Below the pieces are notes generated by a model that searched no databases, was not told the origin of the DNA, and saw only the letters and a list, made by a program, of their open reading frames with translations. Below, piece after piece: positions 27,372-42,756 of a stretch of DNA of 64,000 nucleotides (position 1 is the stretch's first letter; each line of letters starts with the position of its first letter). The stretch covers positions 97,518 through 161,517 of the forward strand of contig CAZAFA010000001.1 in the NCBI GenBank assembly GCA_964484655.1. Direction: 5' to 3'. A program made the position numbers and the translations under genes. The stretch is from an uncultured Candidatus Saccharibacteria bacterium (lineage in GTDB: Bacteria > Patescibacteriota > Minisyncoccia > UBA6257 > 2-01-FULL-56-20).

Positions 27372-27390
27372 ATTCGGCCATAACAATATT

Positions 27391-27418: not shown

Positions 27419-27631
27419 ATTAGTATGATTTAGATATGAAGAGACACTGGCTTGAGCATATTGAAGGATCATTCTCGCTATCGCCCTACCTGCGGGTTTG
27501 ATAGCCTTATTACTTGATCCGTCAGCGACAAATGGCCTCCTATTTCTTATCCTCGCAGTAGCGTGGAAGCACGCAAATGGCGCCCTATAAAGGCGCGGCT
27601 ATTTGGTATCGGTTAAATTTTCAGACACAAA

Positions 27632-27659
27632 ATCGTTCGAACATCGTCCACGACCCCCA
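27632..27659 (+). repeat. 28-bp direct repeat, copy 2
   Basis: ATCGTTCGAACATCGTCCACGACCCCCA, 241 bp downstream of copy 1 in a noncoding stretch. Confidence 0.6.
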
Positions 27660-27672
27660 GTGGATATTTGAA

Positions 27673-27700
27673 AAGGCACCTGTTAAGTAACAAGTGCCTT
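27673..27700 (-). terminator. Rho-independent terminator for the minus-strand small membrane protein gene
   Basis: The stem AAGGCAC...GTGCCTT has an internal TGTTA/TAACA extension. On the minus strand it is followed by TTTTCAAATAT. Confidence 0.5.
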
Positions 27701-27724
27701 CACCTCATCAAGAGTCTGGTCAAT

Positions 27725-27955
27725 CTAATTTTCGTCGAGATAACCGCGCAGCTTCTCTACGGTTAAAGAATCGCCTCGGATAAATTCCCTCAAGCTGATT
27801 CCACAAAATCCAATAGTTAAGCTCGAGATGCCGATGATTCCAAAAAAGATGACACTGACCCAAACGCCGCCGTGAATGGTCTGCGGGTGCGTGGACATCT
27901 CATACCAACCCATAACTGTTGCAATAGCGATTAACACTAGCCCTAATAGTTTCAT
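27725..27955 (-). CDS. Small two-TM membrane protein (76 aa), low-GC block
   Basis: Start chosen at MKLLGLVLIAIATVMGW... because GGAGGT lies 8 nt upstream. The track ORF extends to 28114 but has no RBS there. Confidence 0.5.
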   Translation of the reverse strand: MKLLGLVLIAIATVMGWYEMSTHPQTIHGGVWVSVIFFGIIGISSLTIGFCGISLREFIRGDSLTVEKLRGYLDEN

Positions 27956-28072
27956 TGTGAATACCTCCGCTGAACATACTAAGTATATTGACGAATTATT
28001 CAATAGTACGCATAAGGGTTCCGATAACGTCCCACTGCGCCAGCAGCCATTTTTTAGCGATACAATTCGGTC

Positions 28073-28657
28073 ATGAAGAGCCTCAAGGACTTTGATCCGA
28101 ACGAGGTGGCACATCTCGATCTAGAGATGTGGAAGGCATACTACAGCCATAGGTTCGTCCGCCTGTTTTTCTTACTTGTTAGACTCCTGCGTAAGCAATT
28201 CGGGCTGGGCCTGTTTACTGCCATCCGTGCCGCATCTTTCGCCGCCGCGGCAGCAACCGATTTCCGTCGTAACAAAGGGAAGGAAGACAAGCAGCGTGTG
28301 TATGAGAAAGTTCTACGCTTCACGCAAATTGTTTCTGCTAACGCGCCAGAAGAGTTCAATGCAGAACAAGCTGCTACAACCGAAGTTGAGTGGTGGTTTG
28401 TCGATCGTTACCCCGAGAACTTCCTAGAAGGGGAACGTGAGAGAGGGCTAGCACGTGCAATGAGTGCTATCTACGGAGTAAACCCGGAGGCCTTAGCGGA
28501 TTATGCCAAGTATCGTGCTCAGGCCATGGTGCTCCAGGATGAAGCTGAAGAGACAGGCAAGGAGGCAGATTGGGAGAGGATGGGGATCCTGCTCAGGGAT
28601 TCCTATCGGGCATTATTCACCGCTCTTCACGAGGAGGATCGTTCGAAGTTCGTCTAG
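28073..28657 (+). CDS. Hypothetical protein (194 aa), intermediate GC
   Basis: No recognisable domain. An N-terminal amphipathic/hydrophobic segment and a C-terminal acidic region. The gene is followed by a T-tract. Confidence 0.45.
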   Translation: MKSLKDFDPNEVAHLDLEMWKAYYSHRFVRLFFLLVRLLRKQFGLGLFTAIRAASFAAAAATDFRRNKGKEDKQRVYEKVLRFTQIVSANAPEEFNAEQAATTEVEWWFVDRYPENFLEGERERGLARAMSAIYGVNPEALADYAKYRAQAMVLQDEAEETGKEADWERMGILLRDSYRALFTALHEEDRSKFV

Positions 28658-28710
28658 CTTGGCCAGCGCGGCGAGCGTTCAGGCTTTTTTCTTGATGCTA
28701 TTCTAGAGAC

Positions 28711-29091
28711 ATGACCACCATCTTCCTCGCCCAGCTCTGGGGGCCGATCTTACTCGCTGTCGCGCTCGGGATCTTCTTCAGCGCCTCGTACTACCGCCGC
28801 ATCTACCGCGAGCTCGAGAAGGACTCGCTCGCCGTCCTTCTCTTCGGCATGACCGCCACCGCGGCCGGCATCGCGCACGTCCTGTTCCATAACTCCTGGG
28901 CTTCTACGCCGGAGATTGTCGTATCCCTCCTCGGCTGGGGACTCCTCCTCAAGGGCATGCTCTTCATCATCGCACCCGGGTTCGTGGACCGCGCCGGGGA
29001 CCGATGGGCGAAGCTCAAGCTAATCCCGTTCGCAGGAGCTCTCACGCTACTGGTCGGCTTGTATCTGACCTGGTTCGCGTACCTCGCGTAG
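28711..29091 (+). CDS. Hypothetical membrane protein (126 aa, 4 TM), host-like high GC
   Basis: Four predicted TM helices. Codon usage returns to the high-GC pattern of the flanking chromosome. Confidence 0.5.
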   Translation: MTTIFLAQLWGPILLAVALGIFFSASYYRRIYRELEKDSLAVLLFGMTATAAGIAHVLFHNSWASTPEIVVSLLGWGLLLKGMLFIIAPGFVDRAGDRWAKLKLIPFAGALTLLVGLYLTWFAYLA

Positions 29092-30917: not shown

Positions 30918-30990
30918 GCCCCTATAGCTCAGTTGGTAGAGCAGCTCCCTTTTAAGGAGACGGTCCTAGGTTCGAGCCCTAGTGGGGGCA
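30918..30990 (+). tRNA. tRNA-Lys (anticodon UUU), CCA not encoded
   Basis: Cloverleaf: acceptor GCCCCTA/TGGGGGC, D-arm GCTC-AGTTGGTA-GAGC, anticodon loop CTTTTAA (TTT), T-arm CTAGG-TTCGAGC-CCTAG, discriminator A. 73 nt. Confidence 0.9.
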
Positions 30991-31000
30991 CTCATTTTTC

Positions 31001-32257
31001 ATGGCGAAGCATCCCAAATTCTTCCTCACCCTGATCGTCCTGGTCTCGGTCGCGGCCGGCTTCTTCGCCTACCCGGGCTCGCCGCTGGCGAAGTACCGGC
31101 CGTGGCGCCTCGGCCTCGACCTTGTGGGCGGCTCGCACCTGACCTACGAGGTCGACCTGTCGACCGTGCAGGGAGGGGACCGCCAGCTCGTCCTCGACGG
31201 CCTGCGCGACGTCATCGAGAAGCGCGTGAACCTCTTCGGCGTCGCCGAGCCGCAGGTGTACGTCGCGAGCACCGGCGACAAGAGCAACCTCGTCGTCGAG
31301 CTCGCGGGCATCCGCGACGTCAGCGAGGCCATCAGGCTCATCGGCGAGACGCCGACCCTCGACTTCCGCGAGCTCTCGTCCTCGACGCCGAGCGTCGCCA
31401 TCGGCACGAGCACCGACGAGTTCGTCCCGACGGAGCTCACGGGCCGCTTCATCACCGGCGCGCAGCAGGTCTTCGACCCGCAGACGCGCGCGCCGATGGT
31501 CTCGATCGCGTTCAACAGCGAGGGCGCGAAGCTCTTCGGCGAGATCACCGGCCGCAACGTCGGCAAGCCGGTCGCGATCTACCTCGACGGCGCGCCGATC
31601 TCCATGCCGCGCGTGAACGAGCGCATCGACGCCGGCAACGCCGTGATAACCGGCCTCTCCGTCGACGAGGGCCGTCTCCTCGCGCAGCGCTTCAACGCGG
31701 GCGCGCTCCCGGCGCCGATCACGCTCATCGAGCAGAAGACCGTCGACGCGACGCTAGGCGCGCGCTCGCTGACCAAGGCGGCGGAAGCCGGCGCGATCGG
31801 CACGCTCCTGGTCATGATCTTCATGATCCTGTTCTACCGCGTGCGCGGCTTCTACGCCGCCCTGGCGCTCCTGATCTACGTCGTCCTCACCCTCGCGCTC
31901 TTCAAGCTCGTCCCGGTGACGCTCACGCTCGCGGGCCTTGCCGGCTTCATCCTGACCATCGGCATGGCCGTGGACGCGAACATCCTCATCTTCGAGCGCA
32001 TCAAGGAGGAGGAGCGCGCGGGTCGCTCACGCCTGGACGCGATCCGCGAGGGCTTCCATCGCGCGTGGCCGTCCATCCGCGACTCCAACATGAGCACGAT
32101 CATCACGGCCATCATCCTCTACTACTTTACGAGCGGCTTCGTGCGCGGCTTCGCCCTCACGCTCCTCCTCGGCGTCCTCGTGAGCATGTTCTCGGCGATC
32201 ACCACGACGCGCCTCTTCCTTCTGGCCTTCACCCGTAACAAGACTGCACGCGCATGA
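31001..32257 (+). CDS. secD: Protein translocase subunit SecD
   Basis: LGLDLVGGSHLTYEV..., a periplasmic domain and a C-terminal 6-TM domain. Confidence 0.9.
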   Translation: MAKHPKFFLTLIVLVSVAAGFFAYPGSPLAKYRPWRLGLDLVGGSHLTYEVDLSTVQGGDRQLVLDGLRDVIEKRVNLFGVAEPQVYVASTGDKSNLVVELAGIRDVSEAIRLIGETPTLDFRELSSSTPSVAIGTSTDEFVPTELTGRFITGAQQVFDPQTRAPMVSIAFNSEGAKLFGEITGRNVGKPVAIYLDGAPISMPRVNERIDAGNAVITGLSVDEGRLLAQRFNAGALPAPITLIEQKTVDATLGARSLTKAAEAGAIGTLLVMIFMILFYRVRGFYAALALLIYVVLTLALFKLVPVTLTLAGLAGFILTIGMAVDANILIFERIKEEERAGRSRLDAIREGFHRAWPSIRDSNMSTIITAIILYYFTSGFVRGFALTLLLGVLVSMFSAITTTRLFLLAFTRNKTARA

Positions 32258-33147
32258 GCATCACTCGCTTCAAGAACTGGTACCTCGCGATAGCCGTCGT
32301 GCTCGCGGCTGCGTCCATCGCCGCGATCGCGACCTACGGCTTCCGCCTCGGCATCGACTTCACCGGCGGCGCGCTCTGGGAGATCCAGGCGCCGAACCTG
32401 AGCTCGGAGCAGGTGAGCGCCACGCTCTCCGAGGCGGCGGGAGGCGCGGTGCACGTCTCGCGCGACGCGACCACCGGCCATTACCTCGTCCGTCTCGGCG
32501 AGTCGGACCAGGAGACGTACCAGCGCGTGCGCGCGGCGGTCCAGGAGGCCGATCCCGATTTCGCGGAATCGAGCTTCTCGTCCATCGGCCCCTCGGTGTC
32601 GACCAAGCTCCGGACCGGCGCGTTCCTCGCGATCGGCCTCGTGATCGCCTTCATCTCGCTCTACATCGTCTTCAGCTTCCGCGGCGCCGCGGGCCCGGTG
32701 AAGAGCTGGGCGTACGGCGTGTCGACCCTTATCTCGCTCTTCCACGACGTCGCCATTCCGGCCGCCGTCATCGCGCTGCTGGGCCACTACAGCCAGGTGG
32801 AGGTGGACACCAACTTCATCGTGGCGCTCCTGGTGGTCATGGGCTTCTCGGTGCACGACACCATCGTCGTCTTCGACCGCGTCCGCGAGAACGTCGGCCG
32901 CATGCGCGCCAGCTTCGGCGAGGTGGTGGACGCGTCCGTCCGCCAGACCCTCGCACGTTCGCTCGCGACCTCTTTCACGCTGGCGCTGGTCCTCGTGGCG
33001 CTCCTGTTCGGCGGCCCGCCGAGCCTCTACTACTTCGTCCTGATCCTCCTCATCGGCGTCATCGCCGGAGCCTACTCGTCGATATTCGTGGCCTCTCCTA
33101 TCCTGCTGCTCCTGAGCGGGGGACGGCGGGCCAGGAAGCGCACCTAG
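32254..33147 (+). CDS. secF: Protein translocase subunit SecF
   Basis: GIDFTGG..., a 6-TM SecF core with a 4-nt overlap with secD. Confidence 0.9.
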   Translation: MSITRFKNWYLAIAVVLAAASIAAIATYGFRLGIDFTGGALWEIQAPNLSSEQVSATLSEAAGGAVHVSRDATTGHYLVRLGESDQETYQRVRAAVQEADPDFAESSFSSIGPSVSTKLRTGAFLAIGLVIAFISLYIVFSFRGAAGPVKSWAYGVSTLISLFHDVAIPAAVIALLGHYSQVEVDTNFIVALLVVMGFSVHDTIVVFDRVRENVGRMRASFGEVVDASVRQTLARSLATSFTLALVLVALLFGGPPSLYYFVLILLIGVIAGAYSSIFVASPILLLLSGGRRARKRT

Positions 33148-33149
33148 GC

Positions 33150-33180
33150 TTGACTTTCCCACCAAAATCGCCGATATTAT
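33150..33180 (+). promoter_or_regulatory. Sigma70-like promoter TTGACTTTCCC...GATATTAT
   Basis: The -35 TTGACT lies within the context TTGACTTTCCC, as at 8799. The -10 candidates are GATATT (17-nt spacer) or TATTAT (19-nt spacer). The ATG of the next gene is at 33198. Confidence 0.4.
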
Positions 33181-33197
33181 CCAACATAAGTAAACAG

Positions 33198-34229
33198 ATG
33201 TCCATCACGAAGCTAATCGAGAACGCCTGGGCACACCTGCAGCCTCGCCAGCGCGACATCCTCGCCGGCCGCTTCGGCGTCGGGGAGTACGACGAGCAGC
33301 AGACCCTCGCCGCGCTTGGCGAGCGGTACGGCATCACCCGCGAGCGGGTCCGCCAGATCGAGGCCGCCGCGCTCGCCGGGCTCCGCGAGGCGCTCTCCGA
33401 TTCCGCGGACGCGAAGGCGCTCCAGGACAAGGTGAAGAAGATCGTGAAGGAGCATGCCGGCGTGGCTTCCGTCGAGCAGGTGCTCGCCGGGCTCAAGAGC
33501 GAGGTGAAGGACCTCTCGGCCAACGCGCTCCAGCTCGTCATCCGTGCGATGAACAACCTGCACTACCACGACGGCGACGACCGCTTCGTGGCCGCGTACG
33601 CGCAGGACGCCGCGGCCTTTAAGTCCATGGCCGAGCACGTCGCGGGCTGGATCAAGACGCTCGAGCAGAAGAAGGAGCACGTGCTCGCGAGCAACGCGTA
33701 CAAGGCGCTGCAGACGGCGTACGCCAAGGATCGCCAGATCACCGTCCGCGCGCTCGAGCAGTACGCGGGCCTCTCGAAGAAGCTCGTGACCAACGCCTTC
33801 GGGCAGACCGGCCTCGTCCACTGGACCGAGGTGAACCCGCGCACCGTCCGCGACCAGATCTACCTGATCCTGCGCAAGCACCAGGCGCCGCTCCATTTCG
33901 AGGAGATCGCGACGGCTATCAACAAGAGCGGCATCGCCGCGCGCCCCGCGCTCTCCGCGACCGTGCACAACGAGCTCATCAAGGACGAGCGCTTCGTGCT
34001 CGTCGGACGCGGCAAGTACGCGCTCGCCGAGGCCGGCTACACGCCGGGCACCGCGCGCGAGGTCGTGCACCGCATCCTCAAGGAGCAGGGCCCGCTCGAC
34101 GCGAACGAGGTCATCGAGGCCGTCCAGAAGGAGCGCCTCTTCAAGCCCAACACCATCCTGGTCAACCTGCAGAACCGGCAGCACTTCAGCCGCAACCCGG
34201 ACGGGACGTACCAGGTACGCGAGGCGTAG
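33198..34229 (+). CDS. DNA-binding protein: N-terminal sigma-70 region-4-like HTH plus two C-terminal HARE-HTH-like winged-helix domains
   Basis: RQRDILAGRFGV...TLAALGERYGITRERVRQIEAAAL is a classical sigma region 4.2 HTH. Later EIATAINKSG...RFVLVGRGKYALAE and EVIEAVQKERLF...PDGTYQVRE fit the HARE-HTH pattern. Confidence 0.55.
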   Translation: MSITKLIENAWAHLQPRQRDILAGRFGVGEYDEQQTLAALGERYGITRERVRQIEAAALAGLREALSDSADAKALQDKVKKIVKEHAGVASVEQVLAGLKSEVKDLSANALQLVIRAMNNLHYHDGDDRFVAAYAQDAAAFKSMAEHVAGWIKTLEQKKEHVLASNAYKALQTAYAKDRQITVRALEQYAGLSKKLVTNAFGQTGLVHWTEVNPRTVRDQIYLILRKHQAPLHFEEIATAINKSGIAARPALSATVHNELIKDERFVLVGRGKYALAEAGYTPGTAREVVHRILKEQGPLDANEVIEAVQKERLFKPNTILVNLQNRQHFSRNPDGTYQVREA

Positions 34230-34250
34230 CGTAGAATAGGGAGTGATCCC

Positions 34251-35459
34251 ATGACGCTCGCTGACATCTTCTTCGGTAGCGGGCTCGCCGCCCTGCTCTG
34301 GCTCCTCGTCGCGGCGCTCCCGCTGCTCCTGATCCGCCCGATGCTCTCGGCGCTCACGTTCTGGCGCCAGCAGCTCTACATCAGCAAGAGCATGGAGTCG
34401 ACGGTGCTCGAGCTCCGCATCCCGCCGGACCTGCACCGCAGCCCGCGCGCCATGGAGCAGGTGCTCGTCGCGCTGCACGGGCTCCGCAACGCCCCGAAGA
34501 CCTGGCGCCAGTACCACGTCGACGGCGTGGTCACGCGCTGGTTCTCGTTCGAGATCGTCAGCCAGGGCGGCCAGCTCCGCTTCTTCATGCGCGTCCCGAG
34601 CGCGCTCAAGAACCTCGTCGAGTCGGCGCTGTTCTCGTACTACCCCGAGGTCGAGGTGATCGCGGTGCCGGACTACGTCGCGACGCTGCCGCACACGGTC
34701 TTCGACCTCGAGGCGCAGAAGCTCGATCTCTGGGGCACCGAGATCGCCGCCGCGAAGCCGGCCGTCATCCCGTTCAAGACGTACCAGGCGTTCTCGTCCG
34801 GCGAGAAGGACGGCATCGACCCGCTCTCGTCCATGGTCGAGGTGCTCGGCAAACTCAAGAAGGAGGAATTCGCCGCCATGCAGATCGTCGCGGCGCCCGC
34901 GGACCGGTCCTGGAGCAAGGACGGGGCCGCGATCATCGCGAAGATCAAGGAGACCGGCGCGCTCACGCCGGGCGAGACCACGAACGTGAAGGAGATCGAG
35001 GACAACGTCGGCAAGCCGGCATTCGACGCTCTCGTGCGCGCGGTCTATATCGCTCCCGCCGAGGGCTTCTCGTCCGGCTTCGCCGCGGCGGGCATCACCA
35101 ACGCGCTCAACCAGCTCAGCAGCCCGAAGCACAACGCCTTCGCGCCCGTGCTCGGCACCGGCGGCAAGGGCGCGCAGGCCGTGCGCAGCAGCAAGGCGCG
35201 CATGCTCTGGGCGTTCCGCACGCGCGCTATCCCGCAGAAGGAGTTCTGGGGCAAGTTCCTGACCTCGCTCCCGGGATACCGCAACAACAAGGAGCGCTGG
35301 GCGCCGCTCTCGGTGGAGACGCTTGCGACCATGTTCCACCCCCTCCCGTCGAGCGTCCTCACCGCGCCGCACCTCGAGCGCCTCGCCAGCCGCCGCGTCT
35401 CCGCTCCGGCCGGCCTGCCGATCTACGGCGACGAGGAGGCCATCAAAAAGTTCCTCTAG
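34251..35459 (+). CDS. Hypothetical membrane-anchored protein (402 aa)
   Basis: N-terminal TM hairpin, then a large soluble domain with no recognisable family. Tightly linked to the flanking genes. Confidence 0.5.
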   Translation: MTLADIFFGSGLAALLWLLVAALPLLLIRPMLSALTFWRQQLYISKSMESTVLELRIPPDLHRSPRAMEQVLVALHGLRNAPKTWRQYHVDGVVTRWFSFEIVSQGGQLRFFMRVPSALKNLVESALFSYYPEVEVIAVPDYVATLPHTVFDLEAQKLDLWGTEIAAAKPAVIPFKTYQAFSSGEKDGIDPLSSMVEVLGKLKKEEFAAMQIVAAPADRSWSKDGAAIIAKIKETGALTPGETTNVKEIEDNVGKPAFDALVRAVYIAPAEGFSSGFAAAGITNALNQLSSPKHNAFAPVLGTGGKGAQAVRSSKARMLWAFRTRAIPQKEFWGKFLTSLPGYRNNKERWAPLSVETLATMFHPLPSSVLTAPHLERLASRRVSAPAGLPIYGDEEAIKKFL

Positions 35460-35462
35460 CCC

Positions 35463-35951
35463 ATGTTCGAAACCATCCTCGGCTACCTGGCCCTCGTCCT
35501 GCTCTTCCTGCTCCTGCTGGATGCGGTCATCGTGGCCCTGTTTGTCTGGTTCTCGCGCGAGGCGGCCGCGGTGAAGCCGGACATCCTGGGCGCGCCGAGC
35601 ACGGCGGCCCAGGAGGCCGCGCAGAGCTCCCGCGCCGAGGCCGTGCGGAAGGCGTGGGGCGAGATCGAGGCGTCCGCGACCGCCGGAACGGACGGGAAGC
35701 GCCTCGCGGTCATCAACGCCGACCGGCTCGTCGACCGCCTCCTCAAGGATGCGGGCTACGAGGGCGAGGGCGCGCTCGAGCGCATGAAGGCGCTCCCGCG
35801 CGAGAAGGTGGCGACCGCCGCGGACCTCATGGCCGCGCACCGCTTCCGCAACCGCCTCGTGCACGAGGTCGGCTTCCAGCCGGACGACCGCGCGCTCGAC
35901 GGCGCGCTCGCGCAGTTCCGCGCGTTCCTGACCGAAGTCGGGTATCTTTAG
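35463..35951 (+). CDS. Hypothetical membrane-anchored protein (162 aa)
   Basis: Single N-terminal TM, then a soluble domain. Starts 4 nt after the previous stop. Confidence 0.5.
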   Translation: MFETILGYLALVLLFLLLLDAVIVALFVWFSREAAAVKPDILGAPSTAAQEAAQSSRAEAVRKAWGEIEASATAGTDGKRLAVINADRLVDRLLKDAGYEGEGALERMKALPREKVATAADLMAAHRFRNRLVHEVGFQPDDRALDGALAQFRAFLTEVGYL

Positions 35952-35954
35952 CGC

Positions 35955-37055
35955 ATGGCTGAGAAGAAGCCAGCTCGCCTCGAGCTGCACATGGTCAAGT
36001 ACACGCCGCCGCCTGCGGACCTGCCGGTGTACGGCTCGGTGCCGGCCGGCAAGCTCACCGTGATGGGGCGCAGCACGTACGTCGCGCCCATGACCGACGA
36101 GCAGGGCTACGTCTTCGGCATCCTCGAGGAGGACCGCGCGTCGGGAGTGCACGTGATCGGGCGCGCCGGCTCGGGGAGGACGAAGCTCCTCGAGGCCATG
36201 GCGCGGCAGGACCTGGCTGCGCGACGGCCGATCGCCGTGATCGACGCGAGCGGGGACCTGATCGCGAGCCTTCTGGGCGGCATGGGCGAGGAGGCGCGCA
36301 AGGCGGCGGTCGTGATAGGGGAAGGGTATCCGGGAGGCATCGATCTGCTCCCGCAGCCGGGGCAGGAGTTCCTCTTCGCGGACACGCTCGCCGAGGCCGC
36401 GGCGGAGTTCGCCGGCACCGGCTTCGACCCGAAGCTCAGGCGCGTCATCGCCGCCGAGCTCGCGGCGCGTCCGGCCTCGATGCTCGAGCTCGCCGAGCGC
36501 CTCAAGGGCAACGAGGACGCGGCCGCGGTCTCGGACATGCTCGAGGAGATCCTCGCGTACCCGACCGGCAAGGAGATCCTCGGCGGCGGGCATCCGCCGA
36601 CGGGCACGATCTTCGCGCTCCTGCAGCCGGCAGAGCTCGGCTTCTCCCGCGCCCGCGCGCTCGCGCACCTGGTCTCGGACGCGGTCATCCGCGCGCACGC
36701 GGAGGAGCGCCTCCTGCCGCTCTACGTGGACGGGCTCGAGATCCTCTCGGGACGCGGCGGCCTGCAGCTGCTGCGCGACATGCATACGCACCGGATCGCG
36801 CCGGTACTCGCGCACCGCATCTACGCCGACATCTCGCCGGCGGTGCTCTCGACGATCTCGGGCACCATCGGGACCGAGGTGGCGTTCCGGCTCTCGGGCG
36901 AGGATGCCAGCCGCGCGCGCAACGAGTTCTCGCAGACGTTCGACGTCCGCGACTTCCTCGTGATGGGCTCGCGCCAGTGCTACGTGCGCCTCCAGATCAG
37001 GGGCGAGCTCCGCGAGCCGTTCTCGGCGGAGACGCTGCCCCTCGTGCGGCAGTGA
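35955..37055 (+). CDS. Degenerate paralog of the DUF87/HerA/VirB4-type ATPase at 38516; predicted catalytically inactive
   Basis: Block-wise alignable to the 38516-40210 protein (VHVIGRAGSGRTKLLEAM..IAVIDASGDL versus MYIIGKSGTGKSTLIGNM..VAVVDPHGEL, and the C-terminal ...FRLSGEDASRARNEF... versus ...FRVGADDAAFLEREF...). Walker A is GSGRT (Lys to Arg) and Walker B is YVDGLE instead of YVDEFQ (Glu lost). Confidence 0.6.
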   Translation: MAEKKPARLELHMVKYTPPPADLPVYGSVPAGKLTVMGRSTYVAPMTDEQGYVFGILEEDRASGVHVIGRAGSGRTKLLEAMARQDLAARRPIAVIDASGDLIASLLGGMGEEARKAAVVIGEGYPGGIDLLPQPGQEFLFADTLAEAAAEFAGTGFDPKLRRVIAAELAARPASMLELAERLKGNEDAAAVSDMLEEILAYPTGKEILGGGHPPTGTIFALLQPAELGFSRARALAHLVSDAVIRAHAEERLLPLYVDGLEILSGRGGLQLLRDMHTHRIAPVLAHRIYADISPAVLSTISGTIGTEVAFRLSGEDASRARNEFSQTFDVRDFLVMGSRQCYVRLQIRGELREPFSAETLPLVRQ

Positions 37056-37768
37056 AGGCCGCCGAGGACTTCCCGCGGCGCATCAACAAGCATCTCGCGA
37101 TGCTCGGCGTCGACACGCGGCGCGGCGCGGACGACCTGATCAAGGCCGGGAAGGTGACGATCAACGGGGCCGTCGCCAAGGCGGGGGACTGGGTGCATGA
37201 AGGCGACCGCGTCGAGGTCGCGGGCGCCGGGCCGAAGCGGTACGCCTACTTCGCGTACCACAAGCCGGTCGGGGTGGTCACGCACTCGCCCCAGGAAGGG
37301 GAGACCGGCATCAAGGAGCGGACGGCGTTCTCCGGCATGCCGAAGGACGTCTTCCCGCTCGGGCGCCTCGACAAGGCGTCCTCCGGCCTAATCCTCCTCA
37401 CCAACGACGGCCGCGTCACCGACCGCCTCCTGAACCCGAAGTTCGCGCACGACAAGGAATATATCGTCACGACGAAGGAGCGCATCGGGCCGAGCTTCCA
37501 GCGCATCCTGACCAAGGGCGTCGACATCGGCGGGTACGTGACGCTGCCGAGCGTGGTGAAGCTGCGCGGCGACCACGAGTTCTCGATCCAGCTCCGGGAG
37601 GGGAAGAAGCACCAGATCCGGCGCATGGTCGTCGCACTCCGCAACGACGTGGTCACGCTCAAGCGGATACGGGTCATGAACGTCCGTCTCGGGACGCTCA
37701 AGCCCGGACAGGCGCGGCCGATCGAGGGCGAGGAGCTCGAGACGTTCCTGAAGGGGCTCGGCCTGTAG
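37052..37768 (+). CDS. rsuA: 16S/23S rRNA pseudouridine synthase, RsuA/RluB family
   Basis: S4 domain (RINKHLAMLGV..SRR-like), catalytic GRLDKASSGLILLTNDG and C-terminal KKHQIRRM. The GTG start overlaps the upstream stop (GTGA). Confidence 0.8.
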   Translation: MKAAEDFPRRINKHLAMLGVDTRRGADDLIKAGKVTINGAVAKAGDWVHEGDRVEVAGAGPKRYAYFAYHKPVGVVTHSPQEGETGIKERTAFSGMPKDVFPLGRLDKASSGLILLTNDGRVTDRLLNPKFAHDKEYIVTTKERIGPSFQRILTKGVDIGGYVTLPSVVKLRGDHEFSIQLREGKKHQIRRMVVALRNDVVTLKRIRVMNVRLGTLKPGQARPIEGEELETFLKGLGL

Positions 37769-37769
37769 G

Positions 37770-37797
37770 TTGCAAAATATATAAAAAGTGCTATAAT
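37770..37797 (+). promoter_or_regulatory. Consensus-like promoter TTGCAA-16-TGcTATAAT
   Basis: Perfect -10 TATAAT with an extended TG and a good -35. It is followed by a GCAGGC-ttcg-GCCTGC hairpin at 37810-37825 in the 5' UTR and AAGGAGA before the ATG at 37859. Confidence 0.6.
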
Positions 37798-37858
37798 ACT
37801 GGACGGTTAGCAGGCTTCGGCCTGCCGATACATCTGATACATAAGGAGACTGAATTTT

Positions 37859-38428
37859 ATGTTCGAAGGCGTCATCGCCAATCACAACGGAACCGGCTTC
37901 TCGAAGCTGGACAGGGATCTCTTGACCTTCCTGCGCGAGCGGGAAGCCAACAAGAAAGGATGGCACTCGTATAGCCATAGCGTGGGCAACCTCAGCTACG
38001 GGATCCGGGCGAAGTCCGTCGGAAACGACCTGATCGTGACCGTCAACGGCTTCTGCGTGCACAACACGCGGGAGAAGCGCCGCGTCGGGATTGCACTTCT
38101 CGAGGACAGCGCGCTCACGCTCGCGATCGGTCATGACATCGCGCTGATCGTCCCCACGGAGGATCTCGAGATGACCTGGGCGGTCAGGAAGCTCTTCCCG
38201 AACTTCCGCGCCGACCTCGCGCCGCATCTCGGTCGCGTGTTCGAGCTTGTCGAGTCTTACCTCAGAGGCGACGCCTCCAAGACGCTCAAGGCTCGTCTCG
38301 ACCCGGTCGCCGGGTTTCTCGGTCGCGACGTGAAGCACTGCATCAAACGGCTCGAGGAGCTCGTGCCCGAAAGAAAGGCGGAGCGAATCAACAACAGCAT
38401 GGCGACGCAGCTTGCTGCACTCGCCTGA
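37859..38428 (+). CDS. Hypothetical protein (189 aa)
   Basis: Strong promoter and RBS. No recognisable domain. Sits between the two ATPase paralogs. A terminator-like hairpin at 38442-38464. Confidence 0.5.
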   Translation: MFEGVIANHNGTGFSKLDRDLLTFLREREANKKGWHSYSHSVGNLSYGIRAKSVGNDLIVTVNGFCVHNTREKRRVGIALLEDSALTLAIGHDIALIVPTEDLEMTWAVRKLFPNFRADLAPHLGRVFELVESYLRGDASKTLKARLDPVAGFLGRDVKHCIKRLEELVPERKAERINNSMATQLAALA

Positions 38429-38498
38429 TCCACTCAAAGGAGGCCCCGTTCGCGGGGTCTTTTCGCATCCCGGGCGCACGGATAATTCATCCGGCCCC

Positions 38499-38507
38499 TG
38501 ATATACT
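38499..38507 (+). promoter_or_regulatory. Extended -10 TGaTATACT 8 nt upstream of the ATG (leaderless-type); conserved context CCGG..CTGATATACT.GCCTCGTATG
   Basis: Identical TGATATACT at 8943. The TATACT-[g/t]GCCTCGT-ATG arrangement is also found at 46957-46973. Confidence 0.4.
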
Positions 38508-38515
38508 GGCCTCGT

Positions 38516-40210
38516 ATGGCAGAGGACCAGGAGGACGTAACCTTCATCGGACGCACGGACTTCCGCGGCGCGGAGCGGCTCTTCGGCGTGAAGCGGAAGG
38601 ACCGCCGCCAGCACATGTACATCATCGGCAAGTCCGGCACGGGAAAGTCGACGCTCATCGGCAACATGCTCGTCCAGGACGTCGCCAACGGGGAGGGCGT
38701 CGCGGTCGTGGACCCGCACGGCGAGCTCGTCGAGGGCATCATGCGGAAGATCCCGCAGAGCCGCGCCGCGGACGTCGTGTACTTCAACCCGGCCGATCTC
38801 GAGTACTCCATCGGCTTCAACGTCCTCGAGCTGACCGACCCGGACGACCCCAAGGAGAAGAACCTGGTGGCCTCGGGCCTCATGAGCATCTTCGCGAAGA
38901 TCTGGGAGGGCGCCTGGTCCTCGCGCATGGAGCACATCCTGCTCAACACCATCCTCGCGCTCCTCGACAACCCGGGCTCGACGCTCCTCGGCATCCCGCG
39001 CATGTACGCGGACGCCGCGTACCGCCAGGCGATCCTCAACAACGTCACGGACCCGTCCGTGCTCTCGTTCTGGCTCAACGAGTACGCGACCTGGGACGAC
39101 CGCTACCGCAAGGAGGCGATCGCGCCAATCCAGAACAAGGTCGGCCGCTTCCTCTCCACGCCGCTGGTGCGCAACATCGTCGGTCAGAGCAAGAGCACCA
39201 TCGACCTGTACAAGCTCATGAACGAGGGGAAGATCTTCCTCGTGAACCTCTCCAAGGGCATGATCGGCGAGGACAACTCCGCGCTCCTCGGCGCGATGCT
39301 CATCACCAAGATCCAGCTCTCGGCCATGCGCCGCGTGGAGATCAAGGACGAGGACGAGCGCGTCGACTTCTACCTCTACGTCGACGAGTTCCAGAACTTC
39401 GCCACGGACTCCTTCGCGACCATCCTCTCCGAGGCGCGCAAGTACCGACTCAACCTCGTCGTGGCCCACCAGTACATCGGCCAGCTCGTCACGGACGCCT
39501 CGTCGCGCGTCCGCGACGCGATCTTCGGCAACGTCGGCACCATGCTCAGCTTCCGCGTCGGCGCCGACGATGCCGCCTTCCTGGAGCGGGAGTTCTCGCC
39601 GGAATTCACGGTGCACGATCTCATAAACCTCCCGAACCGCCGCATCTTCATCAAGCTCATGGTCGACGGCGTCTCCTCCCGCCCGTTCTCTGCCGCCACG
39701 CTCCCGCCGTTCAAGGCGACGGAGATCAGCATCCCTGAGGACGAGGTCGTCGCCAGCTCCCGGAAACGCTACGCGCGGCCGCGCTACCAGGTGGAGACGG
39801 AGATCAACCAGAGCTCCGGACTCGGCGGCGCCCAGCAGATGCGCGACCGCGCCGCGGCGCCGGGCGAGCGGCGCACCCCGCGCGTGCGCGCCCAGCAGGC
39901 GGATCCGGGGGACCTCGCCGCGCTCGGCTTCGACATCGCGCAGGCGACCCGGCCCCGCCCCCCGCGTCCCGCGCCCCGCCAGCATGCGTCGGCACCGCAC
40001 CCGCCGGCCCCGCGTCCGCGCGCTCCGGGCCAGGCGCCCGAGCGGCGTCCCGCGCCCCGCGCTTCAGAACCCGCGCGCGGGACCGGCGGGATCTCGCTCG
40101 CCGAACTCGGCCGGGCGCCCGGCAAGGAGGCGCCTGCCAAGCCCCAGGTCGACGTCAACGCCATGAAGGATGCCATCGCCAAAGCGCTCGAGAGCAGGAA
40201 AGAGGACTAG
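38516..40210 (+). CDS. DUF87/AAA_10-type P-loop ATPase (HerA/FtsK/VirB4/TraG superfamily) with a Pro/Arg/Ala-rich low-complexity C-terminal tail
   Basis: Walker A IIGKSGTGKSTLI, VAVVDPHGEL, Walker B FYLYVDEFQNF and arginine-finger-like NLVVAHQ...; no TM segment. The last ~130 aa are a low-complexity tail that overlaps the trmD start. Confidence 0.7.
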   Translation: MAEDQEDVTFIGRTDFRGAERLFGVKRKDRRQHMYIIGKSGTGKSTLIGNMLVQDVANGEGVAVVDPHGELVEGIMRKIPQSRAADVVYFNPADLEYSIGFNVLELTDPDDPKEKNLVASGLMSIFAKIWEGAWSSRMEHILLNTILALLDNPGSTLLGIPRMYADAAYRQAILNNVTDPSVLSFWLNEYATWDDRYRKEAIAPIQNKVGRFLSTPLVRNIVGQSKSTIDLYKLMNEGKIFLVNLSKGMIGEDNSALLGAMLITKIQLSAMRRVEIKDEDERVDFYLYVDEFQNFATDSFATILSEARKYRLNLVVAHQYIGQLVTDASSRVRDAIFGNVGTMLSFRVGADDAAFLEREFSPEFTVHDLINLPNRRIFIKLMVDGVSSRPFSAATLPPFKATEISIPEDEVVASSRKRYARPRYQVETEINQSSGLGGAQQMRDRAAAPGERRTPRVRAQQADPGDLAALGFDIAQATRPRPPRPAPRQHASAPHPPAPRPRAPGQAPERRPAPRASEPARGTGGISLAELGRAPGKEAPAKPQVDVNAMKDAIAKALESRKED

Positions 40211-40874
40211 GCCGCGCATCCGCTTCACGATCCTGACGGCGACTCCCGAGGTCGTCGCGCCGTACGCGGCGGGATCGGTGCTCGGCCGCGCGCAGAAAGC
40301 CGGCATCATAGCCGTGGAAACGGTGCCGCTGCGCGACTTCGCCGACCCGCCGCACTACCACATCGACGACCGCCCGTTCGGCGGGGGACCGGGCATGGTC
40401 CTCAAGGTGGAGCCGATCGCCCGCGCGGTGAAGGCCGCGATCCCGCGCAAGAGCGCCGGCGCACGCGTCATCCTGTTCTCGACGCGCGGGCGCGTCTTCG
40501 ACCAGAAGGAGGCGGAGCGACTGTCGAAGTACCGGCATCTCGTCTTCGTGTGCGGCCGCTACGAGGGCGTCGACGAGCGCGTGGCCGAGCATCTCGCCGA
40601 CGAGGAGCTGAGCCTCGGCGACTTCGTGCTCACCGGGGGCGAGCTGCCCGCGCTGACGGTCATCGACGCGGTCTCGCGCCTCGTGCCCGGCGTTCTGGGC
40701 AAGACCGAGTCCCTGGAGGGGATCAAGGGCAGCTTCCCGACCTACACCCGTCCCGCGTCCTACGCGCCGGGCAGGGGCAAGGTCACCTGGGACGTCCCTG
40801 ACGTGCTCGCCTCGGGCAATCACGCGGAGATAGAGCGGTGGCGACGTTCCGCCGGCTCTCAGGGGACGCGGTAG
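40170..40874 (+). CDS. trmD: tRNA (guanine37-N1)-methyltransferase TrmD
   Basis: SPOUT knot motifs GRYEGVDERV and SLGDFVLTGGELPALTVIDAVSRLVPGVLG. The only in-frame start codon is the ATG at 40170, 41 nt inside the preceding gene. Confidence 0.85.
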   Translation: MPSPKRSRAGKRTRPRIRFTILTATPEVVAPYAAGSVLGRAQKAGIIAVETVPLRDFADPPHYHIDDRPFGGGPGMVLKVEPIARAVKAAIPRKSAGARVILFSTRGRVFDQKEAERLSKYRHLVFVCGRYEGVDERVAEHLADEELSLGDFVLTGGELPALTVIDAVSRLVPGVLGKTESLEGIKGSFPTYTRPASYAPGRGKVTWDVPDVLASGNHAEIERWRRSAGSQGTR

Positions 40875-41956
40875 CGCTCGGCGCGGCAGGCCTGGTCGTC
40901 GGTACCGCGCTCGCCGCGCTGGGCGCTCCGTCCCTGCCCGTCCTCGCGTCCGCCGCGGGCTGTTCGTTGCTGCGCGTCAGAGGCAGGGGAGTCCTCTGCG
41001 CCAGCCTGCTCGCCGGCGCGCTCCTCGCGGGAGCGCGCGGCGTGGGGATGCGTGCCGAGATCCTCGATCCGCTCGACGGGACGCGGGACCGCCTGCTCCG
41101 CCCGCTCGTCGCCGCGATCCCGGGCGAAGCGGGCGCGCTCGCTGCTGGCCTGACGCTCGGGGAGAGCCGGTACTTCAGCCGCGCCTTCCGGGACGCGATG
41201 CGCGCGAGCGCGACCACGCACCTGGTAGCGCTCTCCGGCTTCAACGTGATGCTCGTCCTCGGCTTCGCGCGACGCCTGTTCCGGCTCTGGTTCGCGCTGC
41301 GGGAGGAGGCGCTCCTCGGCGTCCTGTTCCTCGCCGCGTTCGTCGCACTCGCAGGATTGCAGCCGTCCCTGCTGCGCGCGGCGATCATGGGGACCGCGCT
41401 TCTCGTTGCTCAGCTGGCTGGAAGACGCGTCGCGCCTGCACGCCTACTGCTGCTCGCCGCGGCGCTGATCCTGCTCTACGACCCGCGCCTTGCGACCCAT
41501 CTCGGATTTATCCTGTCGTTTATCAGCAGCTGGGCCCTGATGGCTATCTTCGGGGACGTGGAACGCTTCCTCGCAACCGGCATGCGCCTCGGCGCGACGA
41601 TCCGCAGAGTCCTGGTGCCGACGCTCGTCGCGCAGCTCGGCGTCGCGCCGGCGCTCCTGGCGACCGTCGGCTCGGTCTCGCTGATCGGCCTCGCCGTGAA
41701 CCCGGTCGCGATCGCGATGACCCCGTTCCTGACCGCGCTCTCGGGCGCGACGCTCCTCCTCGCGCACGCGGCGCCCCCGCTCGCCGCGCTCCTGGGACCC
41801 CTCGCGGGACTCGCAGGACTGCCCGCGATCGCCGCGATCACGCTCGCGGCGCGGCTGCCGCTCGAGGTCGCGGTAGCGGTCCCTGCGTGGGCGGCCTGCG
41901 TCCTCTACGCCGGCAGCGTCCTCTGGTCGCTGAAGCGGAAGCCGGAGCTATGGTGA
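40838..41956 (+). CDS. comEC: ComEC/Rec2 competence-channel core (membrane domain only)
   Basis: About 10 TM helices with the ComEC signature THLVALSGFNV. The N-terminal OB/DUF4131 region is short or absent. Confidence 0.75.
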   Translation: MATFRRLSGDAVALGAAGLVVGTALAALGAPSLPVLASAAGCSLLRVRGRGVLCASLLAGALLAGARGVGMRAEILDPLDGTRDRLLRPLVAAIPGEAGALAAGLTLGESRYFSRAFRDAMRASATTHLVALSGFNVMLVLGFARRLFRLWFALREEALLGVLFLAAFVALAGLQPSLLRAAIMGTALLVAQLAGRRVAPARLLLLAAALILLYDPRLATHLGFILSFISSWALMAIFGDVERFLATGMRLGATIRRVLVPTLVAQLGVAPALLATVGSVSLIGLAVNPVAIAMTPFLTALSGATLLLAHAAPPLAALLGPLAGLAGLPAIAAITLAARLPLEVAVAVPAWAACVLYAGSVLWSLKRKPELW

Positions 41957-42756
41957 GATGGTTCCTCGTCGCGGCGTTCGCGCTCGGCGGCGGCGCTGCG
42001 CTGCTTGCGACGCGTCCGGCAGCGGCCGCGCCGCGCCTGACCGTGCTCGACGTCGGCCAGGGGGACAGCGTCGTCATCGACGCCGGCCTCGCAGTCATGG
42101 TGGACACGGGAAATCCGGGATCGCAGGCGCTCGCAAAGGCGCGCGCCCGGGGTCATGCTGTCCGCGCGCTCCTGATCTCGCACCTCCACGACGACCACGC
42201 GGGGGACGCGTCCGCGGTGATCGCCTCCGGCATCACGGCGGCTTTCTGGAACGGCCGGACCGGCGGGGCGCTGCACGAGAAGCTGCACGCGGCAGCGGCG
42301 GATGCTGGCGTGCCGCTCGTCGCGGTCGTGCCCGGGGACCGCATCCGCGCCGGCGGCGCGACGCTCCGGGTGATCGGACCGGACCGCGGCTATCTCACCA
42401 GCGGCGACCCGAACGACACCTCGCTCTCGATCCGCGCCGAGCTGCCCGGCTTCGCCGCCATCCTCACCGGCGACGCTAATCTCGAGGGCGAGGAGGCGCT
42501 GCCTCCGGCGCTGCTCCGCGCCGACGTCCTCAAGGTCGGCCACCACGGCTCCAGGACGAGCTCCGGCGAGGTCTTCCTCGCTCGGGTCTCGCCGCGGATC
42601 GCGCTCGTCTCGAGCGGGGCAGGGAACCGGTACGGCCATCCCGCGCCTGAGGCGCTCGCGCGCCTCCGCGCCGCCGGCGCCGCGGTCTACCGGACCGATC
42701 AGGCGGGCACGATGACCGTGACGTTCGAAGGCGCCGGACTGCGGGTGCTCCGCTAG
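41950..42756 (+). CDS. ComEC C-terminal metallo-beta-lactamase domain encoded as a separate, translationally coupled ORF
   Basis: LTVLDVGQGDS...HLHDDHAG...VGHHGS...GHP, an MBL fold. Its ATG overlaps the upstream stop (ATGGTGA). Confidence 0.75.
   Translation: MVRWFLVAAFALGGGAALLATRPAAAAPRLTVLDVGQGDSVVIDAGLAVMVDTGNPGSQALAKARARGHAVRALLISHLHDDHAGDASAVIASGITAAFWNGRTGGALHEKLHAAAADAGVPLVAVVPGDRIRAGGATLRVIGPDRGYLTSGDPNDTSLSIRAELPGFAAILTGDANLEGEEALPPALLRADVLKVGHHGSRTSSGEVFLARVSPRIALVSSGAGNRYGHPAPEALARLRAAGAAVYRTDQAGTMTVTFEGAGLRVLR

Follow-up and report, generated by a model that had tools for sequence, protein, structure and literature searches.

Type IV coupling proteins (T4CPs) such as TrwB are single-stranded DNA (ssDNA)-dependent translocases associated with type IV secretion systems (T4SSs). 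In a survey of Patescibacteria (Quinonero-Coronel et al. 2025; PMC12102498), 5,713 VirD4-like T4CP homologues were counted in 2,918 of 3,035 genomes (~96%), a distribution wider than that of the T4SS: VirB4 was present in 2,417 of the genomes, 148 of the 5,713 T4CPs lay near virB4, and 109 relaxases were found. The authors state that T4CP genes frequently lie apart from virB4, that TrsD, a remote homologue of the VirB4 N-terminus, is widespread beside VirB4 in these bacteria, and that T4CP exaptation "cannot be ruled out". Here we analysed a 64-kb stretch of DNA with ~68% G+C from an uncultured Candidatus Saccharibacteria bacterium (contig CAZAFA010000001.1, positions 97,518 to 161,517 of the forward strand; hereafter the window). 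In it, genes for two such ATPases, ATPase1 and ATPase2, lie in one block with genes for a helix-turn-helix (HTH) protein, a 402-amino-acid (aa) membrane protein of the DUF8128 family and a 162-aa membrane protein with a predicted HEPN fold.

The core of this block, which recurs in other Patescibacteria, consists of the HTH protein, the bitopic DUF8128 protein and then a single or a pair of anchor-less ATPases of the VirD4/TrwB type. In a subclade related to Liptonbacteria, the motor gene is duplicated and the membrane-anchored HEPN-fold protein is also encoded. In the lineage of the window, ATPase1 has lost the catalytic Glu, part of the helical insert and the C-terminal tail, and in this genome alone it has lost the Walker A Lys as well. 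We interpret the block as a vertically inherited chromosomal module of Paceibacteria-type Patescibacteria that may have been assembled from ATPase parts of T4SSs, uncoupled from conjugation and put to use in nucleic-acid handling at the membrane, an interpretation for and against which we consider the evidence evenly balanced.

Several described systems share parts of this architecture. Like VirD4, TrwB, TraD and TraG, the ATPases combine an FtsK/HerA nucleotide-binding domain, Walker motifs, a helical insert and a TraG-D_C region with a long C-terminal tail that ends in a conserved motif, as in TraD. Unlike these T4CPs, they have no N-terminal transmembrane domain, no relaxase or mating-pair-formation genes were found nearby, and the genes are chromosomal, vertically inherited and fixed in position, often duplicated and, in the window lineage, with one copy inactivated. 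VirB3-VirB4 fusions exist, and the N-terminal helix followed by a VirB4-like domain in DUF8128 recalls them. In plasmid pSK41, a stand-alone TrsD is encoded directly upstream of the VirB4-type ATPase TrsE, and the order of DUF8128 and its ATPase is the same as that of TrsD-TrsE (pGO1/pSK41); the predicted model of DUF8128 also matches chains of the VirB4 protein TrwK. In contrast to these VirB4 and TrsD-TrsE systems, sequence homology is not detectable, the partner ATPase is of VirD4 type and the rest of a T4SS is not encoded here. FtsK/SpoIIIE and the type VII ATPase EccC are membrane-associated ring translocases of the same superfamily, and EccC mixes active and degenerate domains, whereas the window ATPases have no gamma domain and their degenerate state is specific to a lineage rather than a trait of the family. 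The 162-aa protein shares a helical bundle with an Rx4H motif with the HepT/MNT system and with the VirD2-binding protein (VBP), from which it differs in being membrane-anchored, in having no nucleotidyltransferase (MNT) partner and in the loss of the His in some orthologues.

Conservation of the neighbourhood was assessed in 84 loci. A DUF8128 profile scan with one genome per species gave 80 loci, and loci from exact protein look-ups were added. The window proteins were searched against all open reading frames (ORFs) of each locus, and each count below takes only the loci with enough flanking sequence. The loci are labelled as Lipton-, Wolfe-, Yanofsky-, Sung-, Ryan-, Harrison- and Azambacteria among others, and homologues of the module proteins were found in assemblies of Paceibacterota, Parcubacteria and other Patescibacteria (the candidate phyla radiation, CPR). 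The HTH gene lies directly upstream of the DUF8128 gene in 71 of 79 loci, including distant ones in which DUF8128 is 26-31% identical to the window protein. A T4CP-like ATPase gene starts within 1.2 kb downstream of DUF8128 in 55 of 63 loci, and this adjacency (overlap or a gap of ≤100 nt) persists down to 27-30% DUF8128 identity. At least one ATPase is encoded within 10 kb in 36 of 39 loci and two ATPases in 10 of the 39. SecD/SecF is found ≤2.5 kb upstream in 50 of 61 loci. The block is a conserved and uncharacterised module, and its recurrence is more than chance.

Three arrangements were distinguished. In distant groups, SecDF, the HTH gene and DUF8128 are followed by a single ATPase of ATPase2 type (arrangement A). 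In Liptonbacteria-like loci, the order is SecDF, HTH, DUF8128, HEPN, ATPase1, a variable spacer, ATPase2 (~615-660 aa), trmD and comEC (arrangement B); L011 and L020 have the HEPN gene and, of the two ATPases, only ATPase2. The window and loci L087, L088, L004 and L007 have the same order with ATPase1 shortened to 355-371 aa (arrangement C). ATPase2 orthologues adjoin trmD in the two-ATPase loci of both the Liptonbacteria-like group and the window lineage. An earlier reading of the window made from its letters without database searches (the sequence-only reading) had grouped six genes as a unit; five of them co-occur in other genomes and one, encoding a 189-aa protein, does not. It had also compared the pairing of an active and a degenerate ATPase with secretion and translocation machines, type VII systems among them; such a pairing does not define the system: in most relatives both copies are intact (GKSGVGKS/YVDEFH and GKTGTGKS/YVDEFQ), and many loci have a single ATPase.

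ATPase1 and ATPase2 are true paralogues (BLASTP, 24% identity over ~310 residues, E=1e-21), and the pattern of motif loss and retention reported earlier is borne out by the sequence. In ATPase1, the Walker A motif G69-RAGSG-R75-T (GRAGSGRT) has Arg in place of Lys (codon 36177-36179), and the Walker B motif YVD259-G260 (YVDGLE) has Gly in place of Glu (codon 36732-36734). In ATPase2, both Walker A (G38-KSGTG-K44-S, within GKSGTGKST) and Walker B (YVDEFQ, D290-E291) are intact. ATPase2 scored above the Pfam cut-offs for TrwB_AAD_bind (43.5 vs 20.5 bits), T4SS-DNA_transf (39.5 vs 20.1 bits), TraG-D_C (27.8 vs 22 bits) and DUF87 (33.6 bits) and below the NCBIfam equivalog cut-offs for TraD (51 vs 366 bits) and CD1115 (49 vs 250 bits). 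Its sole sequence match in the PDB was TrwB, and BLASTP ranked TrwB (2e-6) ahead of TrwK (8e-3). No T4CP model of Pfam or NCBIfam exceeded its threshold for the window ATPase1. By these profile and alignment scores, both ATPases are classified as VirD4/TrwB-type homologues and not as VirB4 or HerA proper. The previous assignment to a DUF87/HerA/VirB4 type is upheld at the level of the FtsK/HerA superfamily and is corrected below it, since TrwB_AAD_bind and T4SS-DNA_transf are above cut-off; the hidden Markov models place the proteins in the T4CP family and not in an unrelated housekeeping family. FtsK_SpoIIIE (PF01580) had no match in the window proteins, with one orthologue reaching 17.6 bits against a cut-off of 24, and the idea that the ATPases replace FtsK is not supported, given this absence of FtsK model matches in the window proteins.

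Neither ATPase has a hydrophobic segment (maximal 19-residue Kyte-Doolittle means of 1.17 and 1.38). The tail of ATPase2 comprises 164 residues (401-564) and is rich in Ala, Pro and Arg, in agreement with the first description; it contains a conserved DLAALGFD and a terminal VDVNAMKDAIAKAL motif (VDVxxLKxAIxxAL), the latter conserved throughout the orthologues. A treble-clef zinc finger (zf_Tbcl_2; CxxCGK...RPVYCxxC, E=1e-12 to 3e-9) is present in the tail of several ATPase2 orthologues, among them those at L030 13900-15756 and L033 11405-13726, and is absent from the window ATPase2. The ATPase2 gene has a ratio of nonsynonymous to synonymous substitution rates (dN/dS) of 0.10-0.15. An extended -10-like element, TGaTATACT (38499-38507), ends 8 nt before its ATG, no Shine-Dalgarno sequence precedes the start, and L087 has TGgTATACT; this element may indicate a leaderless mRNA and an independent promoter for ATPase2.

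The loss of catalytic residues in ATPase1 took place within a limited group. DG at Walker B is common to the ATPase1 proteins of five genomes (the window, L087, L088, L004 and L007), and the Lys-to-Arg change in Walker A is found in the window only, the other four keeping GRAG(S/M)GKT. All five proteins (355-371 aa) are without ~50 residues of the helical insert and without the C-terminal tail, whereas Liptonbacteria-like ATPase1 orthologues have ~485 aa and intact GKSGVGKS and YVDEFH. In a neighbour-joining tree, the single ATPases of arrangement A joined the clade of ATPase2, the intact ATPase1 proteins made up a second clade, and the five degenerate proteins shared a long branch, whose position outside both paralogue clades was treated as long-branch attraction. 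The degenerate group is assigned to ATPase1 because its genes directly follow the HEPN gene, because the N-terminal motif is kept, and because the window ATPase1, used as a phmmer query, matched intact ATPase1 orthologues of full length with 123-151 bits and ATPase2-type proteins with 57-84 bits. The pair of an active and a dead ATPase is a late specialisation of an older state with two active paralogues.

The degenerate copy is not a recent pseudogene. In five genomes with DUF8128 proteins 66-93% identical, its reading frame is intact and the length is conserved, and its dN/dS (Nei-Gojobori) is 0.14 against L087 and 0.25 against L088, within the range of the neighbouring genes (0.10-0.40). 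The G+C content at third codon positions (GC3) is 0.94, like that of the neighbours. Like every other gene of the module, ATPase1 is thus under purifying selection, and it is maintained as a predicted non-hydrolysing derivative. A decaying pseudogene was rejected on the basis of dN/dS, GC3 and ORF conservation.

The window DUF8128 protein was assigned to PF26449 through its homologues: relatives at 26-71% identity carry precomputed PF26449 (DUF8128) matches and the window protein aligns with them end to end, while the local Pfam copy scored no PF26449 even in the carriers of precomputed matches. Invariant residues of the alignment include E69, E101, Y131, P191, E197, H363, P386 and L389. Hydropathy and flanking charges predict a single N-terminal transmembrane helix (residues ~6-28) with an N-out/C-in orientation, positive charges following the helix; the membrane anchor recognised in the sequence-only reading corresponds to this one hydrophobic segment. 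In the AlphaFold 2 (AF2) model (predicted local distance difference test score, pLDDT, 85; predicted template-modelling score, pTM, 0.81), a long helix at the N-terminus leads into an alpha/beta domain. When this model was compared with the PDB by Foldseek, the best 13 matches were all TrwK/VirB4 chains of R388 (E=5e-6 to 1.4e-4, prob 1.0). TrwB, FtsK, HerA and other P-loop proteins were not among the Foldseek PDB matches, and ESX-3 structures appeared with low probability. Because no P-loop ATPase other than TrwK matched, the likeness would be to the N-terminal half that is specific to VirB4. The cytoplasmic domain of DUF8128 may thus resemble the VirB4 N-terminal half, a proposal that comes from one Foldseek result on a predicted model and from one protein in the PDB.

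Sequence comparisons did not detect this relationship. DUF8128 had no match at E≤10 to PF03135 (CagE_TrbE_VirB) or other Pfam families, and a PDB profile search gave no link to VirB4 at the sequence level. Sequence homology to VirB4 or TrsD was rejected, as the Pfam, PDB profile, hhalign and profile-profile comparisons were all negative, and because of these negative results the relationship to VirB4 is one of predicted fold only. At E≤1e-3, a profile search of 1.84 billion cluster representatives recovered 4,018 DUF8128 clusters (50% identity). The 150 best of these 4,018 matches were all stand-alone proteins of 395-547 aa, with no DUF8128-ATPase fusion among them.

The C-terminus of DUF8128 carries a conserved motif, which in the window is A385-PAGLPIYG-393. 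A tail of the form [KR]K.G.PP.GLP[IV] was seen by eye in most of 86 homologues, and a stricter automated pattern matched 14 of the 86. A 40-sequence alignment shows no variation at P386 and L389, and in loci of arrangement A the protein stops directly after the motif. The tail resembles PPPxxLPxYG at the N-terminus of every ATPase1, which in the window ATPase1 is K15-YTPPPADLPVYG-27 and has the ATPase1-specific form KY(A/T)PPPxxLPxYG. From this resemblance we infer that the shared motif is a docking peptide, which would be supplied in trans by DUF8128 and in cis by ATPase1.

The 162-aa protein is predicted to have an N-terminal transmembrane helix (residues 2-35), in line with the single hydrophobic segment on which its earlier description as membrane-anchored was based, followed by a helical bundle (AF2 pLDDT 86). 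The top Foldseek matches of the model were HEPN toxins (HepT) and HEPN domains (7ae6, 2q00, 2hsb, 8xdj, 5yep and 7bxo). The motif H126-R-F-R129-N130-R-L-V-H134-E (DNA 35847-35864) holds the HEPN signature Rx4H, and all 20 close homologues share R129, N130 and H134 (AHRxRNxLVH). No Pfam HEPN family matched at E≤10. On its model and motif, the protein is classed as a membrane-anchored protein with a predicted HEPN fold, and because positive charges follow the helix, the HEPN domain is placed in the cytoplasm. The gene adjoins DUF8128 in 25 of 76 loci, all in the Liptonbacteria-like subclade. A HEPN paralogue with the motif RNR(C/I)AQ, in which the His is lost, was also seen ~8 kb upstream of DUF8128 in two single-ATPase loci (L056 1994-2602 and L062 2115-2654); the HEPN family may therefore extend beyond the subclade in which it adjoins DUF8128.

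In the HTH protein, Pfam placed Sigma70_r4 at residues 28-80 (E=7e-14) and HARE-HTH at 231-294 (E=2e-11), and a second winged-helix-like stretch (302-341) had a weak Pfam score. The layout is that of a sigma-70 region-4 HTH joined by a helical linker to a tandem of HARE-HTH-type winged helices (231-294 and ~300-357). The first two of the three domains named in the sequence-only reading are thus well founded, and the second winged helix has a weak score. Relatives use a start equivalent to the ATG at 33198 (343 aa), the protein has no hydrophobic segment, and the dN/dS of the gene is 0.16-0.22. Sigma region 2 is absent, and NCBIfam sigma models align with only their C-terminal 60-70 positions, far below cut-off. 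A sigma-70 sigma factor was rejected on the finding of region 4 without region 2 in Pfam and NCBIfam, and RNA polymerase delta (RpoE) was rejected because TIGR04567 scored 26.4 bits against a cut-off of 42 and the HARE-HTH domains are C-terminal and in tandem.

Between the two ATPase genes lies a variable spacer. Its first gene encodes an RluF/RsuA-like protein with S4 and PseudoU_synth_2 domains (Pfam, NCBIfam), and its GTG start overlaps the ATPase1 stop by 4 nt (GTGA, 37052-37055). L087 has the identical order and 4-nt overlap. This arrangement suggests that translation of a housekeeping gene is coupled to that of the module. The genes of 33150-37055 had been described as lying in tight succession, and the gaps of 21, 3 and 3 nt on the plus strand between the HTH, DUF8128, HEPN and ATPase1 genes agree with this; the RluF-like gene (37052-37768) had been overlooked. 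It occupies this position in L087 and L088 and is absent in L004; the L007 spacer contains no gene matching any window protein, and other loci gave no phmmer match to it. Because of this variable presence in relatives, the gene was rejected as a member of the module.

The spacer of the window continues with a cassette (37769-38470) that consists of a promoter-like site, a Shine-Dalgarno sequence (aaggaga), the 189-aa ORF and a hairpin with a T-run (~38437-38465). The site TTGCAA-16-TG-TATAAT at 37770-37797, which had been reported as a strong promoter with TGcTATAAT, was found again as the best sigma-70-like promoter of the region, which has five such sites against 0.4 expected from shuffles. 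Relative to L087, whose DUF8128 is 93% identical and which has 48 nt between the synthase gene and ATPase2, the cassette is a clean indel of ~690 bp. The ORF has no homologue in any locus, is a singleton cluster, has no Pfam or PADLOC match, and has a GC3 of 0.83 against ~0.94 in the neighbours. Absent from L087 and every other locus, the 189-aa gene was dropped from the set as an unrelated strain-specific cassette, and because the cassette is missing from relatives the gene set is five rather than six. Other spacers differ: L088 (6300-9551) has an extracytoplasmic function (ECF) sigma factor, a flavin adenine dinucleotide (FAD) oxidoreductase, an Rlu gene and a 144-aa ORF, and L004 (12826-13275) has an AHSA1-like gene on the opposite strand.

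In the mechanism that we propose for the module, DUF8128 would tether a hexameric ATPase motor to the membrane through its VirB4-like domain and its PPxGLP(I/V) tail, and DUF8128 together with the ATPase would recreate, as two polypeptides, the VirB3/VirB4 or the TrsD-TrsE layout. ATPase1 would serve as a non-hydrolysing structural or regulatory subunit and ATPase2 as the motor. The cargo would most likely be nucleic acid at the cytoplasmic face of the membrane, as hinted at by the descent from T4CPs, by the HTH and HEPN partners and by tails that are rich in Arg or carry zinc fingers; such basic tails and zinc fingers speak for a nucleic-acid ligand without proving it. The module is probably independent of relaxase-type conjugation, and, because T4CP homologues outnumber and outspread VirB4, a role beyond the T4SS can be argued indirectly. 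The sequence-only reading had the anatomy of the block right (a DNA-binding protein, two membrane proteins and a dead and a live paralogous ATPase of the FtsK/HerA superfamily), and the membrane-associated, translocation-type machine that it envisaged receives support from the VirB4-like predicted fold of the 402-aa protein. A more far-reaching version would make DUF8128 and the ATPase a phylum-wide, T4SS-independent membrane nucleic-acid translocase, a VirB4-like machine in two pieces, kept or invented anew by Patescibacteria for a central requirement of an epibiotic life. It would serve the uptake of DNA or RNA through ComEC or the transfer of nucleic acid or protein to or from the host, with the HTH protein selecting and the HEPN protein processing the cargo and the dead paralogue regulating a mixed ring. 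We regard this version as improbable.

Several results weigh against nucleic-acid handling by a tethered motor. Tethering by DUF8128 and mixed ATPase rings are proposals drawn from gene order and motifs. The TM-scores (TMq) of the DUF8128 model against TrwK are modest, 0.34-0.43, in an output that does not report the aligned TrwK residue ranges. At the sequence level, hhalign gave DUF8128 probabilities of 0.3% with TrwK, 0.1% with TrsD and 0.2% with TrsE, and the comparison of a 194-sequence DUF8128 alignment with a 30-sequence alignment of the VirB4 N-terminus gave 0.7%. The HEPN matches of the 162-aa protein have Foldseek probabilities of up to 0.99 and weak E-values of 0.06-0.6, and in the wider clade the full RNxxxH is kept in 23 of 29 orthologues with the His replaced in six. 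In two very distant loci, L001 and L005, the HTH-DUF8128 pair stands beside dnaB and mltG with no ATPase within 10 kb; this pair could thus serve a separate function. The HTH protein might also be a general factor associated with RNA polymerase. Because SecDF is about as syntenic with DUF8128 as the ATPase is, gene order alone is weak evidence. Finally, the T4CP homologue of S. epibionticum is reported to be non-essential (PMC12102498).

Among the rival explanations, which by weight rank from T4SS coupling in trans through a ComEC motor or, equally, mere synteny to defence and lastly mobile-element decay, the heaviest holds that the ATPases are real T4SS coupling proteins. They would act in trans on a VirB4 machine, usually encoded near dnaA in Paceibacteria, with DUF8128 replacing the transmembrane domain, the HTH and HEPN proteins as adaptors like TraM and VBP, and DNA or effectors as cargo. 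The ATPases do belong to the T4CP family, a VirB4-like DUF8128 fold could dock to the inner-membrane complex, and VBP of Agrobacterium, a HEPN protein, recruits substrate to VirD4 (PMC3953389). Coupling from a distance would also fit the frequent separation of T4CP genes from virB4 and the presence of VirB4 in 80% of Patescibacteria genomes (PMC12102498). However, T4CP homologues, of which a genome has about two, occur in ~500 genomes more than VirB4 does, only the 109 relaxases mentioned above were found in 3,035 genomes, and the S. epibionticum homologue is reportedly dispensable although the T4SS is essential. In that organism, the essential T4SS locus contained no coupling protein that Wang et al. 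(2023) could recognise. Among the ~45 larger ORFs scanned in the window, neither an integrase nor VirB4, a relaxase or any further T4SS Pfam domain was detected, and the Pfam-annotated genes tabulated for seven related loci included no T4SS component. Taken together, we think it rather unlikely that these ATPases couple to a T4SS in trans.

The ComFA ATPase serves DNA uptake in Firmicutes, and many competent bacteria do without it. In a ComFA-like role, the module would be the cytoplasmic motor and processing unit of ComEC-dependent uptake, pulling in ssDNA that the HEPN and HTH proteins handle. T4CPs have the required ssDNA-dependent activity, and the order ATPase2-trmD-comEC, followed by the metallo-beta-lactamase gene, recurs in the window and ten loci (L004, L007, L011, L015, L020, L024, L030, L063, L087 and L088), with comEC a few kb downstream in several single-ATPase loci. 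The conserved com genes of the CPR are ComEC, DprA and ComFC, without ComFA (Wang et al. 2023). Yet trmD always separates ATPase2 from comEC, and many loci have no comEC beside the block. The link to ComEC-dependent DNA uptake or transfer raised in the sequence-only reading comes from gene order with trmD in between and is speculative; co-directional housekeeping arrays are common, as is competence without ComFA, and we consider this role doubtful. To the same degree we doubt that the genes are merely syntenic housekeeping genes, with the HTH protein a delta-type factor, DUF8128 unrelated and the ATPases acting alone in segregation or repair. This would suit the similar synteny of SecDF, trmD, ftsW and murG with the block, the HTH-DUF8128 pairs without an adjacent ATPase in L001 and L005, and the occurrence of HARE-HTH as the DNA-binding domain of RNA polymerase delta, albeit with a weak TIGR04567 score (26 bits). 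It does not suit an adjacency of DUF8128 and ATPase kept down to 27-30% identity, anchor-less ATPases in a membrane-bound family, a DUF8128 tail motif that recurs at the ATPase1 N-terminus, or a DUF8128 model that resembles VirB4, a T4SS ATPase related to T4CPs; moreover, FtsK is reportedly annotated in at least one Saccharibacterium. An anti-phage or conflict system, with a putative membrane HEPN RNase effector, HerA/FtsK-like ATPases and a DNA sensor, is very unlikely. The HEPN fold has RNxxxH, HARE-HTH domains are said to occur in restriction and BREX contexts, and weak PADLOC matches link the ATPases with mad8, HerA and DndH and the HTH protein with MzaA. These matches, however, are limited to generic P-loop (mad8, E=1e-10) and sigma-r4 segments, none of them full-length, and PADLOC had no match for DUF8128, the HEPN protein or the 189-aa protein; the block has a fixed core-genome position over many candidate phyla with host-like GC3 and dN/dS, the HEPN gene occurs in about a third of the loci, and no mobile-element hallmark lies nearby. 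Least credible, and largely refuted, is decay, either of ATPase1 as a pseudogene or of the block as the remnant of an integrated conjugative element. The loss of both catalytic residues, a length ~120 residues below that of intact orthologues and the long tree branch would fit, but the ORF is intact in five genomes with dN/dS of 0.14-0.25 and GC3 of 0.94, ATPase1 keeps a 3-nt upstream gap and a 4-nt downstream overlap, and no integrase, relaxase or repeats were found.

The surroundings of the block are of chromosomal type. The window encodes SecA, DnaK, DnaJ, DnaB, CysS, GltX, MgsA, an AddA-like helicase-nuclease, FtsW and MurG; real genes of the region have GC3 of 0.83-0.97, the module genes match the genome, and neither repeats nor mobile-element hallmarks were found near the block. 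secD and secF count as conserved upstream context of the module, and the long antisense ORFs (e.g. 33213-36815 on the minus strand) were rejected as the usual artefact of high G+C. Downstream, trmD and the 3′ end of ATPase2 share 41 nt (40170-40210), and the trmD-comEC pair follows ATPase2 in many relatives. ComEC is represented by two overlapping ORFs, one with the Competence domain and a separate metallo-beta-lactamase; because the identical split occurs in L004, L087 and L088, it is probably a true split gene and not a sequencing frameshift. Further upstream, an island of 41-50% G+C (24850-28800) lies between dnaJ (23771-24826) and DUF2585, tRNA-Lys and secD. Its ORFs at 24944-25543 (minus strand), 25906-26889, 26904-27371, 27725-28114 (minus strand) and 28073-28657 have no Pfam match, and since L006 has secD ~600 nt after dnaJ, the island looks like a horizontally acquired insertion.

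Table 1. Coordinates of the block and of its flanking genes in the window, with the basis of each assignment.
Feature	Position	Strand	Basis or remark
tRNA-Lys	30918-30991	+	
secD	31001-32257	+	upstream context
secF	32254-33147	+	upstream context; 2-nt gap to HTH gene
Sigma-r4/HARE-HTH protein gene	33150-34229	+	Pfam
402-aa DUF8128 membrane protein gene	34251-35459	+	homologues carry PF26449
162-aa membrane protein gene, predicted HEPN fold	35463-35951	+	AF2 model and Foldseek
ATPase1, degenerate, 366 aa	35955-37055	+	BLASTP against ATPase2, alignment
RluF/RsuA-like pseudouridine synthase gene	37052-37768	+	Pfam and NCBIfam
Promoter-like site	37770-37797	+	promoter scan
189-aa orphan ORF	37859-38428	+	within cassette 37769-38470
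ATPase2, intact, 564 aa	38516-40210	+	Pfam
trmD	40170-40874	+	Pfam; downstream context
ComEC Competence-domain ORF	40838-41956	+	Pfam; downstream context
Metallo-beta-lactamase ORF	41887-42756	+	Pfam; then ftsW, murG

The window ATPases almost certainly belong to the proteins that were counted in the Patescibacteria survey (PMC12102498), and the sections of that paper considered here do not describe DUF8128, the sigma-r4/HARE-HTH and HEPN partners, the paralogue classes or the degenerate lineage. Our literature search found no paper on DUF8128 or on this gene neighbourhood. The earlier statement that the system is not a described one therefore applies to its partners and architecture and does not apply to the ATPases, which had already been counted. 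What is added here is a set of defined partners for these ATPases, a testable architecture with a VirB4-like membrane tether and a docking tail motif, and an evolutionary series that leads from one ATPase to two active paralogues and then to one active and one inactivated copy. Because the genomes of Patescibacteria are tiny, genes that are retained in them are usually important. If the tethering is true, the VirB4 and VirD4 ATPase families would be linked in a new split arrangement, and the proteins would become candidates for nucleic-acid handling at the membrane of CPR bacteria. If it is wrong, the cluster would still provide a marker block for annotating DUF8128 and orphan T4CPs.

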